DNA from: a virus
Lineage: Duplodnaviria; Heunggongvirae; Uroviricota; Caudoviricetes
Reading direction: 5' to 3' (one strand)
Virus record (IMG/VR): IMGVR_UViG_2695420889_000008
Length of the DNA: 10,752 nt
A program made the translations under genes and the position numbers. Under the pieces are notes generated by a model. That model had not been told where the DNA came from, ran no database searches, and saw only the letters and a list, made by a program, of their open reading frames with translations. Numbering within the stretch: position 1 is the stretch's first letter; each line of letters starts with the position of its first letter. This document shows positions 5,719-10,752 of the stretch, one piece after another.

Positions 5719-6866
5719 TTGCGCCCCCTTACCTCTGAAGAGTTCAGCGACGAATGAATAAGACGGGCAAGAAATGCCGCATCGTTAATTCGGTCATACA
5801 GACTTACAGCCAGCGGTGATTCAGCTTTTTCCAGCATGGGATAAAGCTGCTGCAACCAGACCTGATGAATTGATGAAATGTAGGAATAGAGAACGCTGGC
5901 GTTATGTGCAACGTCACTCGGTACAGCGAGCTTTGAAAGCTGTTTCTCCATCTGGTTAAAGGCATTGATGTATGCCTCTTTGAACTGGGCAGCACGTTTA
6001 CCCGTGAAACCCATAGCAAGAAACGCAAAGCCGTCGCGGGTTATTTGATAGCAAGGTAGTTTGCGGCCTGTGCAATCGGTGTAATCACTCACCGAAAAAT
6101 TGCGGGCAGTGAATGATGCGGAGCATTCAAGCGTGCGGATCTTTTTCAGAACATCGTCATGACGTTTGGAGAAGAAGTTGGCAACAGCCAGGGATGAAGT
6201 AACAGCCTGACCATCAACGATGGCAATTTCGGGTTGAGTGAGGGTTGGGATCGTAGCCATGATGGCAGCCTCTTTGGTGATTTTTAATAACTCACCACCA
6301 AGGCTTTCCACGACCTTATTGGTGGTGAGACGTACAGGGGTGGAAATACCGGTCACCAAAGAACCCGGCCCAACCGAAGTTGGCCCTGCACGCCCCACCA
6401 TAATTTGGGCGTAATGCTGCTCATGACACAAAAAAACCGCAAGAGCGCGGTTGTGCGCTTTGGTGAATTCCGGGTTTCCACGCCCGGCACCCGCTTTATA
6501 AGGTGCCTGAACAGTGTAACGTCCCGGAATGGCAGAATCAATGTGCTGGTGGTCCTTCACACTCAACAAAATCACGCCTGAATTTCCACAAAGGACTAAA
6601 GCACTCATGCGGGTAGTCTTTGCGAAGATAGATAACGCGCTGTGTTTCTGGCTCCCAACGAATAACATGGACATAAAGCCCTCTTCCGTCACGAAACCAG
6701 CGGTTAAGTTCCTGCACAACTCGCCCCCCACAGTCAGGTAAAGTTCTCTGTGGTTACTTACAGCCAGGTGATTTGGTAATCTGCATTCATGCCGTAACAA
6801 CAGGTGTTCAGCGACACTGACCACCAGCTGTTGCGACAAACGGTTATTTGCCGTTAAACTGTTCAT
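5715..6866 (-). CDS. Rha-family phage regulatory protein, C-terminal 181 aa, with ~200-aa in-frame N-terminal extension of unknown function
   Basis: Rha signature VTSSLAVANFFSKRHDDVLKKIRTL...ITRDGFAFLAMGFTGKRAAQFKEAYINAFNQME lies in the C-terminal half. The open frame runs 383 codons from an ATG (6864-6866) that overlaps the CII-like stop (ATGA). A second start at 6258-6260 has an AGAGG Shine-Dalgarno and would give a stand-alone Rha protein (5715-6260). Which start is used is unresolved. Confidence 0.55.
   Translation of the reverse strand: MNSLTANNRLSQQLVVSVAEHLLLRHECRLPNHLAVSNHRELYLTVGGELCRNLTAGFVTEEGFMSMLFVGSQKHSALSIFAKTTRMSALVLCGNSGVILLSVKDHQHIDSAIPGRYTVQAPYKAGAGRGNPEFTKAHNRALAVFLCHEQHYAQIMVGRAGPTSVGPGSLVTGISTPVRLTTNKVVESLGGELLKITKEAAIMATIPTLTQPEIAIVDGQAVTSSLAVANFFSKRHDDVLKKIRTLECSASFTARNFSVSDYTDCTGRKLPCYQITRDGFAFLAMGFTGKRAAQFKEAYINAFNQMEKQLSKLAVPSDVAHNASVLYSYISSIHQVWLQQLYPMLEKAESPLAVSLYDRINDAAFLARLIHSSLNSSEVRGRK
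6430..6452 (-). terminator. Intragenic terminator-like hairpin inside the N-terminal extension of the Rha ORF
   Basis: Minus strand: ACCGC-gctctt-GCGGT followed by T6-7. Short stem, so weak. Confidence 0.3.
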
Positions 6867-7664: not shown

Positions 7665-7731
7665 TGTACCTCCAATATACATATTACATGATTAATATGA
7701 ACCTTCAAGATACTTGTACCTTATCGGTACA
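7665..7731. promoter_or_regulatory. OR-like operator region between the divergent Cro-like and CI-like genes
   Basis: Two 17-bp sites: TGTACC-tccaa-TATACA (7665-7681) and TGTACC-ttatc-GGTACA (7715-7731). Candidate leaderless PRM: TTGTAC (7714-7719), 17-bp spacer, TTTAAT (7737-7742), start near the cI ATG at 7749. Candidate PR on the minus strand: TTGAAG (7703-7708) and TAATAT (7681-7686). Confidence 0.5.
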
Positions 7732-7748: not shown

Positions 7749-8423
7749 ATGAAAACAGTCCATGACATCCGGCGGTCTAACGCCAGAAAACTGAGAGATG
7801 GTGTTGGCGGGAATTCTTCCTTTGCCACCATGATTGATCGCGAGCCAACCCAGACCAGCAGGTTTATGGGAGATGGTGCTACTAAAAATATCGGTGACAG
7901 CATGGCACGGCACATCGAAAAATGTTTCGACCTGCCTGTCGGATGGCTTGATCAAGAACACCAGACCACGAACATCACAAAAAAACCTGATGTTTCAATC
8001 ACTAACAAACAAATAACGTTAGTCCCTGTCATATCATGGGTACAGGCCGGAGCATGGAAAGAAGTTGGCTATTCTGAGGTTGATTTGAGCACAGCAGAAA
8101 CTTATCCCTGCCCTGTACCCTGTGGCGAAATGACTTATATCTTGCGGGTGATTGGTGATTCAATGATTGATGAGTACCGCCCGGGAGACATGATTTTTGT
8201 TGATCCCGAAGTCCCTGCCTGCCACGGTGACGACGTTATTGCATTGATGCACGATACAGGCGAAACCACCTTCAAGCGATTGATAGAAGATGGAACACAG
8301 CGTTATCTCAAAGCATTAAACCCAAACTGGCCTGAGCCTTACATTAAGATTAACGGTAATTGCTCTATAATTGGTACAGTAATTTTCTCAGGAAAACCAA
8401 GAAGATACAAAATAAAGGCCTAA
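7749..8423 (+). CDS. CI/DicA-type prophage repressor with LexA-like S24 autopeptidase domain
   Basis: 224-aa ORF. C-terminal domain has the S24 motifs GDSM (catalytic Ser), GDMIFVD and TFKRL (catalytic Lys). N-terminal domain ends in the VGWLD motif typical of C2/CI-type DNA-binding domains. Confidence 0.85.
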   Translation: MKTVHDIRRSNARKLRDGVGGNSSFATMIDREPTQTSRFMGDGATKNIGDSMARHIEKCFDLPVGWLDQEHQTTNITKKPDVSITNKQITLVPVISWVQAGAWKEVGYSEVDLSTAETYPCPVPCGEMTYILRVIGDSMIDEYRPGDMIFVDPEVPACHGDDVIALMHDTGETTFKRLIEDGTQRYLKALNPNWPEPYIKINGNCSIIGTVIFSGKPRRYKIKA

Positions 8424-8434
8424 TCAATATTTAT

Positions 8435-8457
8435 AACCTGCTTCGGCAGGTTTTTTT
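8435..8457 (+). terminator. Rho-independent terminator after the repressor gene
   Basis: AACCTGC-ttcg-GCAGGTT hairpin followed by T7, 12 nt after the cI stop. Confidence 0.75.
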
Positions 8458-8461
8458 ATAC

Positions 8462-8494
8462 TTGACAATGTACCCACAAGATACATAATGTATC
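8462..8494 (+). promoter_or_regulatory. PL/PdicB-like repressor-controlled promoter with embedded operator
   Basis: -35 TTGACA (8462-8467), 16-bp spacer, -10 CATAAT (8484-8489). Operator-like TGTACC-cacaa-GATACA (8469-8485) fills the spacer; the 15-bp perfect palindrome GATACATAATGTATC (8480-8494) overlaps the -10. Confidence 0.6.
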
Positions 8495-8892
8495 TAAAAG
8501 AAACATGCCGCAGGCAAGATTAAACAAAATTTGGTTGTAACACGGCGTATGGCACATGCGTCGTTAGCGGTCTGGGGACGTTAAAGGGGACAATCCACTC
8601 CTTGCTCGGGCAAAAAAACCAGGTAGCCGGAATGTGCAAGTCAATGATGATGCTGATAAGACGCCTAACCAGCGCGGCGATCCGGTTTGACGCCTGGGAA
8701 GAGACCAGGGTGCAACGATGAGGGCATTTATGGAACCGCGACAAAGTGTGGTGCCGTAACTGGCTAAGTGCTCTCAGCGTTGTGGTAATCCGCGAAATGG
8801 CGCGGCGGTAAGTATGGCGGGGTTACTCTTTCCCCGTTGAGGACACCGGATTGTCAGGTTGACCATACGCCTGAGTGACAACCCCACCACAA

Positions 8893-8952
8893 CAGCCACT
8901 GCTTTGGCGGTACCAGTTTGTACACTTGCTTCCGGCTGGTACCGCTCTTTTT
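8893..8952 (+). ncRNA. dicF: DicF-like small RNA with intrinsic terminator (tentative)
   Basis: TTTGGCGGTACCAGTTTGTAC matches the remembered E. coli Qin DicF core GTTTGGCGGTATCAGTTTTAC at 19 of 22 positions. It sits in an 11-bp-stem hairpin (GGCGGTACCAG 8906-8916 / CTGGTACCGCT 8936-8946) followed by TCTTTTT. Context matches dicA - promoter - leader - dicF. Compared from memory, not by search. Confidence 0.45.
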
Positions 8953-9041
8953 ACAAAACAGAGAAGAGCATCACCGGACGACGGGCTCATAACCCAATCC
9001 AGCCGGGCGGCTGCCACCGCAGGTGTTCTTCTCTGTTTTGT
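8953..9041 (+). other. Large RNA hairpin (17-bp stem) in the leader just upstream of the first left-operon gene
   Basis: ACAAAACAGAGAAGAGC (8953-8969) pairs with GTTCTTCTCTGTTTTGT (9025-9041) with one G-U wobble. The 55-nt loop holds two small hairpins (CAGCC-gggc-GGCTG, CACC-gca-GGTG). Candidate RNase III or regulatory element. Confidence 0.45.
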
Positions 9042-9089
9042 GGAGAAACCAACCGACCTTGCAGGGTCGATATGATGAGGAGCAGCAAA

Positions 9090-9452
9090 ATGGCTAGCGA
9101 ACGCAGTACTGATGTGCAGGCATTTATCGGGGAGCTGGACGGCGGCGTATTTGAAACCAAAATCGGCGCTGTTCTCAGTGAAGTCGCTTCCGGTGTGATG
9201 AACACGAAAACCAAAGGTAAGGTCTCGCTCAACCTGGAAATCGAACCGTTTGATGAGAACCGTGTGAAAATCAAACACAAACTCTCATATGTTCGCCCGA
9301 CTAACCGCGGGAAAATTTCCGAAGAAGACACCACCGAAACGCCGATGTATGTCAATCGCGGTGGTCGCCTGACTATTCTGCAGGAAGACCAGGGACAATT
9401 ACTGACTCTTGCCGGTGAACCTGACGGAAAACTCCGCGCAGCAGGTAATTAA
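9090..9452 (+). CDS. Hypothetical 120-aa early left-operon protein (YfdP-like by recollection)
   Basis: ORF starting MASERSTDVQAF with GAGGAG Shine-Dalgarno 7 nt upstream; in-frame ATGs at 9072 and 9075 lack a Shine-Dalgarno. Function unknown. Confidence 0.6.
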   Translation: MASERSTDVQAFIGELDGGVFETKIGAVLSEVASGVMNTKTKGKVSLNLEIEPFDENRVKIKHKLSYVRPTNRGKISEEDTTETPMYVNRGGRLTILQEDQGQLLTLAGEPDGKLRAAGN

Positions 9453-9517
9453 TATCGTTCTTAATTAACCGATTATTTATCTCATCACTGAATATCTTTA
9501 TATAGTGAGGACTTATT

Positions 9518-10342
9518 ATGTCTCAGAACTTAGACGCAACCGCAATTAATCAAATTCATGCCCTTATTTCTGCTCAGGGTGTTAATGAAATTATCAGTAA
9601 GATTGGTGCCGATGCTGTGGCATTGCCTGAGAATTTCCGCATTCATGATCTGGAAAAATTTAATTTAAATCGCTTCCGTTTCCGTGGTGCACTTTCGACT
9701 GCCAGCATCGATGATTTTACCCGTTATTCTAAAGATCTTGCAGATGAAGGCACCCGCTGCTTTATCGACGCCGATAATATGCGTGCCGTCAGTGTACTTA
9801 ACCTGGGTACTATCGATGAACCAGGTCACGCAGATAACACCGCCACTCTCAAACTGAAAAAGACAGCACCGTTCTCTGCCCTGTTGTCTGTTAACGGCGA
9901 GCGTAACTCCCAGAAGTCACTGGCAGAATGGATTGAAGACTGGGCCGACTACCTTGTGGGCTTTGATGCTAATGGTGACGCCATTCAGGCAACAAAAGCG
10001 GCTGCGGCTGTCCGTAAAATCACGATTGAAGCAAACCAGACCGCTGATTTTGAAGATAATGACTTCAGCGGCAAACGCTCCCTGATGGAGTCTGTCGAAG
10101 CGAAGACCAAAGACATTATGCCAGTGGCATGTGAATTTAAATGCGTTCCGTTTGAAGGCCTGAAAGAACGTCCGTTTAAATTACGCCTCAGCATTATCAC
10201 TGGCGATCGTCCTGTACTGGTTCTGCGCATTATTCAGCTGGAAGCAGTGCAGGAAGAAATGGCTAACGAATTTCGTGATCTGCTTGTTGAGAAATTCAAA
10301 GACAGCAAAGTAGAAACTTTTATTGGTACTTTCACCGCCTGA
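9518..10342 (+). CDS. Hypothetical 274-aa protein (YfdQ-like, DUF2303-type by recollection)
   Basis: Clean ORF with GAGGA Shine-Dalgarno 8 nt upstream, AT-richer than the flanking DNA, followed by a hairpin. Family name is from memory only. Confidence 0.65.
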
Positions 10343-10354
10343 TTTCATTACTGC

Positions 10355-10380
10355 AAATGCCCCTGCGGGGGCATTTATGG
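10355..10380 (+). terminator. Terminator/attenuator-like hairpin after the 274-aa gene
   Basis: AAATGCCCC-tgcg-GGGGCATTT 9-bp GC-rich stem followed by a weak T-tract (TTTATGG). Confidence 0.4.
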
Positions 10381-10470
10381 AAACGTAATTAACTCAATAA
10401 TCGCCGGATGGTGCGGGATTCCTTTTACCCGAATTCAGCGCGGTGCAGCGCATATAAAGTGGAGAACGAA

Positions 10471-10626
10471 ATGTCATTTATTAAAACTTTTTCCGGGAAG
10501 CATTTTTATTATGACAAGATAAATAAAGATGACATCGTTATTAACGATATCGCGGTTTCCCTTTCAAATATGTGTCGCTTTGCCGGCCATCTTTCACACT
10601 TCTACAGCGTCGCCCAACATGCGGTG
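10471..10626 (+). pseudogene. HD-domain phosphohydrolase-like gene (YfdR-like), truncated after 52 codons by IS insertion
   Basis: GGAG Shine-Dalgarno then MSFIKTFSGKHFYYDKINKDDIVINDIAVSLSNMCRFAGHLSHFYSVAQHAV. Reading frame ends at TGA 10627-10629, which is the first triplet of the IS terminal repeat, before any HD motif. Confidence 0.55.
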
Positions 10627-10752
10627 TGAGGTGTACTGGCAATAGCGGACACTACCATTTGTTCTTTTTTTAAGCAGCCATCTGATGATATTTTTCCCTG
10701 AAGGCTGCCGGGGAGATATTCCCCAGACGAGAGTGACGACGCTGACGATTGT
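10627..10752 (-). mobile_element. IS3-family insertion sequence, terminal end, continuing beyond the window
   Basis: Terminal sequence TGAGGTGTACTGGCAATAGCGGACAC resembles the remembered IS3 inverted repeat TGATCTTACCCAGCAATAGTGGACAC (shared TGA...GCAATAG.GGACAC). Transposase stop lies 38 bp inside the end, as in IS3-family right ends. Confidence 0.65.
10670..10750 (-). CDS. IS3-family transposase OrfB, C-terminal fragment (partial)
   Basis: Minus-strand translation ...NRQRRHSRLGNISPAAFREKYHQMAA* has the RxHSxLGxxSPxxF-type C-terminal signature of IS3-family transposases. The 5' part is outside the window. Confidence 0.65.
   Translation of the reverse strand, partial: NRQRRHSRLGNISPAAFREKYHQMAA

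Follow-up and report, generated by a model that had tools for sequence, protein, structure and literature searches.

We examined a three-gene module at positions 9090-10626 of the virus record IMGVR_UViG_2695420889_000008 (Caudoviricetes), of which the full 10,752-nucleotide stretch is referred to here as the window. The module is yfdP-yfdQ-yfdR, with all three genes on the + strand: these are real genes, named and annotated, that belong to an already known module whose function is partly known. The yfdP and yfdQ genes are intact in this copy and have good ribosome-binding sites. The third gene, yfdR, is interrupted behind its first 52 codons by an end of the insertion sequence IS600, so that the DnaA-binding nucleotidase arm of the module is dead and YfdP and YfdQ are the only products that can be made here. 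YfdQ probably forms a large homo-oligomer that acts in DNA metabolism rather than in defence. As for the natural role of the module, we favor early takeover of the host, a reading for which we consider the chances to be evenly balanced.

Identity of the genes and the break in yfdR

The first gene, yfdP (9090-9452, + strand), was delimited from a six-frame list of open reading frames and from the sequence: it begins with ATG at 9090 behind a GAGGAG ribosome-binding site and its stop codon lies at 9450-9452, whereas a TTG-initiated extension of 197 codons from 8859 was discarded because homologues do not back it. Its product of 120 residues is identical to K-12 YfdP (b2359) at 118 of 120 positions and matches phrog_204 at 1e-49. 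All YfdP homologues have a precomputed match to PF27127, an accession that is itself named 'YfdP'; YfdP had no match in our local Pfam copy, which lacks PF27127. The second gene, yfdQ (9518-10342, + strand; phrog_210), codes for 274 residues, 271 of which are identical to K-12 YfdQ (b2360) in an ungapped alignment. Residues 7-272 align to positions 2-269 of the 269-position DUF2303 model, PF10065, with a score of 305.2 bits (cut-off 26.6; 4.6e-91). The third gene is represented by its 5' part, the first 52 codons of the HD-domain 5'-deoxynucleotidase gene yfdR (10471-10626, + strand), whose product matches phrog_318 at 5e-30 and K-12 YfdR at 51 of 52 residues. We take ATG 10471 (MSFIKTF), with GGAG 7 nucleotides upstream, as the true start instead of 10408, the start of a mechanical open reading frame that has no homologue support. 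These frames agree with an earlier sequence-only reading of the window, which had placed proteins of 120 and 274 residues and an N-terminal HD hydrolase fragment at these positions, and its HD assignment, made from that short fragment, was right.

RefSeq labels the genes of this region ymfK (LexA-family repressor), yfdP, yfdQ and yfdR ('5'-deoxynucleotidase'). Together with the near-identity to K-12 and the presence of the exact YfdP and YfdQ sequences on at least 1000 contigs each, these names indicate that the genes are already catalogued. Region 8400-10752 was found by megablast in 1,166 of 5,426 complete E. coli genomes at a coverage of at least 80%, and the module has been discussed as common in the early left operons of lambdoid phages (PMC12315714). 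The description of the module as uncharacterised in the sequence-only reading therefore does not hold, since it is named, annotated and treated in the literature (PMC12315714), a host-replication phenotype has been published (PMC4776307), and the structure of a YfdQ homologue has been deposited. The module had also been described as AT-richer than its surroundings; this is true (G+C content of 0.456; whole window, 0.498; leader, 0.535), but the difference is modest, with yfdP at 0.504 and the repressor gene at 0.452.

The suggested comparison with the yfdP-yfdQ-yfdR genes of CPS-53 proved exactly right, with 98-99% identity. In E. coli K-12 MG1655, the cryptic prophage CPS-53 (KplE1) carries yfdP-yfdQ-yfdR-yfdS-yfdT, in which the gene order, spacers and ribosome-binding sites are the same as in the window and the three proteins are 98%, 99% and 98% identical. 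The two copies differ at both ends. In the window, IS600 breaks off the yfdR frame after 52 codons, and the stretch stops before reaching yfdS and yfdT. In CPS-53, the repressor, promoter, operators and leader RNA have been lost, and homology begins about 24 nucleotides before the yfdP ATG, in the K-12 yfdO-yfdP spacer (L293 3248-3604). The native regulatory context is thus present in the window copy and not in CPS-53, which means that the published K-12 experiments say nothing on the natural regulation of the module, and that the window, which keeps the promoter, operators and leader, is more useful than K-12 for studying the pair. The same three gene types occupy the same early left operon position in ST64B (gp35-37) and LLS (gp37-39) (PMC12315714). 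The DNA of both phages also matches part of the leader (about 8948-9053), and their HD gene is intact, unlike that of the window copy.

Homology to yfdR ends at 10626/10627, and from there an IS600 end follows (TGAGGTGTACTGGCAATAGCGG). The window from 10627 reads TGAGGTGTACTGGCAATAGCGGACAC, and this stretch (10627-10752) matches DNA that lies under annotated IS600-family transposase genes. We place this insertion sequence end on the - strand, an orientation that is our reading of the end sequence as a reversed right end, not the output of a tool. As IS600 takes over from 10627, the catalytic HD dyad of yfdR is located past the break, outside the window. The fragment retains the first histidine region (RFAGH) only, no catalytic H...HD...D pattern was found in an intact frame, and the Pfam HD model gave no match to the 52-residue fragment. 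When compared to the YfbR/YfdR 5'-deoxynucleotidases, the N-terminal 52 residues are alike, and RefSeq calls the intact copies '5'-deoxynucleotidase', but the window copy lacks about 70% of the protein, the catalytic HD motif included. Hydrolysis of deoxynucleoside monophosphates (dNMPs) by YfdR has reportedly been demonstrated biochemically in studies of YfbR, a related enzyme of E. coli.

The best-matching complete genomes, O145:H28 strains RM12581 and RM13514, are 100% identical to the window over 8400-10626. Both carry IS600 in yfdR at nucleotide 104, in RM12581 in the opposite orientation (L001 11175-12438), whereas in the window it lies at nucleotide 156. These different positions indicate that IS600 has entered this small gene at least twice, independently. 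The 10626/10627 junction itself was present in none of the 5,426 complete E. coli genomes searched. The idea that the window is RM12581 was accordingly dropped for its right-hand end, and the source would be a different strain or a Shigella.

The YfdP-YfdQ pair and the proposed role of the module

An exhaustive search at E ≤ 1e-3 placed YfdQ in a family of 1,444 cluster representatives at 50% identity. A profile of 144 YfdQ homologues matched PDB entry 9o7m, chain C ('YfdQ Protein'), over the full length at 3.6e-86. This entry contains 36 chains of YfdQ-homologue sequence, a number that points to a large YfdQ homo-oligomer. The structure that AlphaFold predicted for YfdQ from the 144-sequence alignment had a predicted local distance difference test (pLDDT) score of 91.5; a Foldseek search of this model against the PDB returned no match at E ≤ 1e-3, and as modelled, the fold of the YfdQ homologues matches no other solved structure. 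Conserved residues of YfdQ are often charged (E46, R52, R56, H104, E140, D141, R166 and R223). YfdP is predicted to form a long helix packed against three long strands, followed by a disordered tail, and Foldseek gave just weak NTF2-like and CaMKII-hub-like PDB matches to this model (E > 0.01). We found no paper for PDB 9o7m, and a literature search on YfdQ, YfdP and DUF2303 found no structural or functional study beyond PMC4776307.

For eight distant representatives of YfdQ, at 36-40% identity, we inspected the contigs; three cases were uninformative because the upstream gene was cut or the contig was too short. In all five informative cases (L007-L009; L011; L013 and L014; L290; L292), as in the window, the gene immediately 5' of the DUF2303 gene is a PF27127 gene. 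Neighbouring genes include those for SSB in L292 and, in L013, for ERF plus an exonuclease. By this constant pairing, YfdP-YfdQ is a conserved two-gene unit that moves among genes of DNA metabolism, and yfdR is a frequent but separable companion to it.

Direct evidence on function comes from K-12: Noguchi and Katayama (2016, PMC4776307) isolated the CPS-53 genes yfdQ-yfdR-yfdS-yfdT by multicopy suppression of hda-185, a mutant that over-initiates. In that study, extra copies of yfdQ and yfdR together with either yfdS or yfdT inhibited initiation at oriC, and yfdP was dispensable. YfdR contacted DnaA via Phe46 of domain I and partly blocked the contacts of DnaA with DiaA and with DnaB, and extracts over-producing the four proteins inhibited oriC replication in vitro (PMC4776307). 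The link to DnaA was thus demonstrated with the K-12 proteins, and the present analysis adds the identity and the regulation of the window copy. Combining the two, we infer the following course of events. In a lysogen, the cI-like repressor would sit on operators overlapping the promoter at 8462-8489 and keep the module silent. After induction, transcription would pass through a structured leader of 590 nucleotides and two terminator-like hairpins before reaching yfdP. An intact YfdR would then bind domain I of DnaA, in competition with DiaA and DnaB, and degrade dNMPs. The module would in this way damp initiation on the host chromosome and reshape the dNMP pool early in lytic growth, and YfdP and YfdQ, as an obligate pair, might support the inhibition of host initiation or serve another step of DNA metabolism.

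Several observations weigh against this role in host takeover. Purified YfdR had no inhibitory effect on initiation in vitro when used alone, YfdQ showed no detectable binding to YfdR or DnaA, the replication phenotype was seen upon multicopy expression only, and deletion of yfdQRST had no effect on initiation or on hydroxyurea resistance (PMC4776307). None of the five informative distant loci has an HD gene beside yfdP-yfdQ, implying that the pair must function independently of YfdR. The YfdP model is of moderate confidence (pLDDT 76), and transcription of the left operon is a prediction.

The sequence-only reading had noted that lambdoid phages keep host-takeover, recombination, exclusion and anti-defence genes at this place, and had seen in the module the best candidate of the window for a host-interaction, defence or anti-defence function. 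YfdP-YfdQ could be defence or anti-defence cargo, for instance an oligomeric sponge or decoy against host immunity, or else a superinfection-exclusion factor. Such a function would suit a pair that is found in an early operon beside the immunity region and whose fold is without a known match, the large homo-oligomer suggested by the 36 homologue chains of 9o7m, and a very widespread family (1444 clusters at 50% identity); in one preprint, moreover, YfdQ production set off plaque formation by another phage (10.1101/413146). We nevertheless regard it as rather unlikely. None of the three proteins matched a PADLOC-DB 2.0 family at E ≤ 0.1, leaving the proposed defence function unsupported, and none matched an NCBIfam model. 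The neighbours of the pair elsewhere are ERF, exonuclease, SSB and HD nucleotidase genes, not known anti-defence genes, and the sole direct experiments indicate control of replication (PMC4776307).

It is similarly improbable that YfdP-YfdQ is a cryptic recombination or replication accessory, for example a single-strand annealing or DNA-end-binding factor, that replaces or assists a Rec module. The pair does occupy the exo-bet-gam place in phages that have no Rec module, such as LLS and ST64B (PMC12315714), and many of the conserved YfdQ residues are charged. The cluster is, however, also present in phages with a complete Rec module, for which reason the authors of that study considered a hidden recombinase unlikely (PMC12315714), and at the distant loci the pair co-occurs with ERF and exonuclease or with SSB. 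Homology to RecT, Erf or SSB had been named in the sequence-only reading as one of the results that would count against its proposal. We looked for it and found none in the fold searches; neither protein showed sequence or fold similarity to RecT/Redbeta, Erf, Rad52, SSB or RdgC.

That the module is decaying prophage ballast with no present function in this genome is very improbable: although yfdR is disrupted by IS600 here and, independently, elsewhere in the gene in O145:H28 RM12581, the left end of the related RM12581 prophage is without an annotated integrase, and the K-12 deletion had no phenotype (PMC4776307), both yfdP and yfdQ are whole genes behind good ribosome-binding sites, their products are just 2-3 residues off K-12, and the pair is kept down to 36% identity over many phages, which indicates that the family, though perhaps not this copy, is under purifying selection.

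Promoter, operators and hairpins of the left operon

The gene upstream of the module (7749-8423, + strand; from the list of open reading frames and RefSeq) codes for a cI-like LexA-family repressor of the ymfK type, and an intrinsic terminator (8435-8452, + strand) with a 7-base-pair stem, a 4-nucleotide loop and a T-run lies 3' of it. Next to this is a pL-like sigma-70 promoter, TTGACA-16-CATAAT (8462-8489, + strand), which agrees at 11 of 12 positions and is the best of the region. Two operator-like sites of the form TGTAYC-N5-GRTACA are located in the cro/cI intergenic region (right operator, OR; 7665-7731), namely at 7665-7681 (1 mismatch) and 7715-7731 (0 mismatches). Two more (8469-8505) cover the spacer, the -10 element and the start region of the promoter, at 8469-8485 (0 mismatches) and 8489-8505 (1 mismatch), and the palindrome AGATACATAATGTATCT is found at 8479-8495. 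The motif has 4 matches in the window, compared to 0.06 expected by chance, and the repressor would presumably bind at these sites. The promoter at 8462-8489 and the operator motif common to OR and to this promoter bear out the earlier proposal of a repressor-controlled left operon, and the module is its first coding cargo.

Three hairpins on the + strand follow the promoter at a distance. The first (8906-8952) is terminator-like, with a 13-base-pair stem followed by CUCUUUUU (folding free energy, dG, -21.2; z -3.5), and is conserved in L015-L017. The second is a long hairpin (8955-9043; dG -40.0, z -4.7) that is followed by UUUUG and lies shortly before the yfdP ribosome-binding site. In the K-12 prophage e14, DNA homologous to these two hairpins (8906-9043; L006 2863-3174) is annotated as a protein gene, ymfH, upstream of xisE; this annotation may in fact cover leader RNA structure. 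The third hairpin (10355-10377) lies between yfdQ and yfdR and is stable, with a 9-base-pair stem and a tetraloop (dG -17.3, z -3.2). It is followed by AUGGAAACG, with no U-tract, was not called by the terminator scan, and has yfdR behind it. The sequence-only reading had given the module a terminal hairpin of its own; the stem exists, but it is inside the module, ahead of yfdR, and is not a canonical terminator.

Elsewhere in the window, on the - strand of the right operon, Rfam models identified a C4 antisense RNA (83.6 bits; 6318-6405) and an isrK RNA (67 bits; 6430-6506), just upstream of a gene for a Rha-family regulator. This C4/isrK unit is a P1 immI-like antirepressor control inside a lambdoid prophage.

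The structured leader RNA

Between the promoter and yfdP lies a leader of about 590 nucleotides in which RefSeq annotates no gene. Three parts make up this mosaic leader: 8523-8786, which stays conserved even when the repressor in front of it differs; 8787-8883, which is swappable; and 8884-9089, which is again conserved and corresponds to the region annotated as ymfH in e14. Within the first of these parts we recognized a conserved structured RNA core (8530-8716, + strand) that belongs to no Rfam family. Its covariance model, R1, was built from 15 sequences, and copies were counted in loci fetched by two pattern scans. These loci, from phages and prophages of Enterobacterales, contain 95 full-length copies, among them copies in prophages of Kosakonia, Citrobacter, Klebsiella, Kluyvera, Enterobacter, Erwinia and further genera; the window contains one. 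A 3' extension of the core, common to the phiV10-type copies, was delimited by alignment (8717-8786, + strand) and has a weak predicted fold (dG -24.7, z -2.0).

Comparison of the leader RNA among P7, phiV10 and a related prophage revealed compensatory changes, for example CCTGG-GAAGAGA-CCAGG / GCCGG-GAAGAGT-CCGGC / CCTCG-GAAGAGA-CGAGG. Throughout the alignment of the 95 copies, both sides change in 27 of 44 pairs, and 86.9% of cells pair, compared to 29-38% once the partners are displaced by one to three columns. The observed values were reached in none of 500 shuffles. The alignment was fitted to model R1, a procedure that favors the structure; even so, pairing reaches 98% in helices 9 and 10, where three or four out of four pairs have changed on both sides. 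The many G-U pairs speak for the + strand. At gathering thresholds, Rfam 15 gave no match to the leader RNA, the matches in the window being those to C4 and isrK elsewhere, and at E ≤ 10, region 8400-9150 gave four weak matches at chance level and nothing else. The existence of the leader RNA as a conserved structure is therefore well supported, whereas its novelty and mechanism are not established.

As to its surroundings, 34 copies lie about 200 nucleotides downstream of a gene for a cI-like repressor with helix-turn-helix and S24 domains. Products of the first open reading frame downstream include YfdP (20 loci), RdgC (11 loci), a gp49/66-family protein (10 loci) and a ParB-like protein (9 loci). 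In P7 (L002 2502-2694) and in P1, with P1-type plasmids and prophages, the leader RNA begins 3 nucleotides after a transfer RNA (tRNA) gene and directly precedes ban, which codes for a DnaB-like helicase and belongs to an operon controlled by C1; BLAST found two places per P1 or P7 record. In epsilon15-like phages (phiV10 and SPC32H) it lies 66-123 nucleotides upstream of tRNA-Arg. The idea of a tRNA-linked RNA, which arose from P7 and phiV10, was abandoned, as a tRNA gene occurs within 400-500 nucleotides of just 4 of the 95 copies.

Downstream of the core and its extension, the swappable non-coding cassette, which we call module B (8787-8883, + strand), is replaced by a different sequence in L015-L017. 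An Actinobacillus phage has DNA about 85% identical to module B between a dicA-like repressor gene and kil (L004 2501-2616), and one hairpin shows apparent compensatory changes. The cassette may be a second mobile RNA element.

No N-like gene was found in the left operon within the window (8490-10752), and a put-like use of RNA has been speculated for related phages that have no N (PMC12315714); taken together, these make a role in antitermination in cis an attractive hypothesis. The resemblance to the put RNAs of HK022 is one of position, after the early left promoter and before terminator-like hairpins, and is an analogy only. The put RNAs are about 70 nucleotides long with two stems (PMC9378689), whereas the leader RNA has a core of about 190 nucleotides with about 10 helices. 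Homology between the two was considered and rejected: model R1, run with filters off on HK022 22000-33500, gave nothing better than E 1.8, and blastn of the leader RNA against the HK022 immunity region (putL, putR) gave only chance matches of 12-21 nucleotides. By this analogy, the RNA at 8530-8716 could represent a new class that acts in cis, as put does, and carries polymerase through the hairpins at 8906-9043 in N-less phages, with YfdP and YfdQ as the first read-through products and as a new-fold oligomer acting on host replication; we put this forward as a tentative possibility.

Few gene pairs are as frequent as YfdP-YfdQ in the early left operons of temperate phages of enterobacteria, and working out what the two proteins do would therefore account for a step that is common in phage takeover. 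The leader RNA may be a more valuable lead than the module itself and could bear on early antitermination in N-less lambdoid phages.

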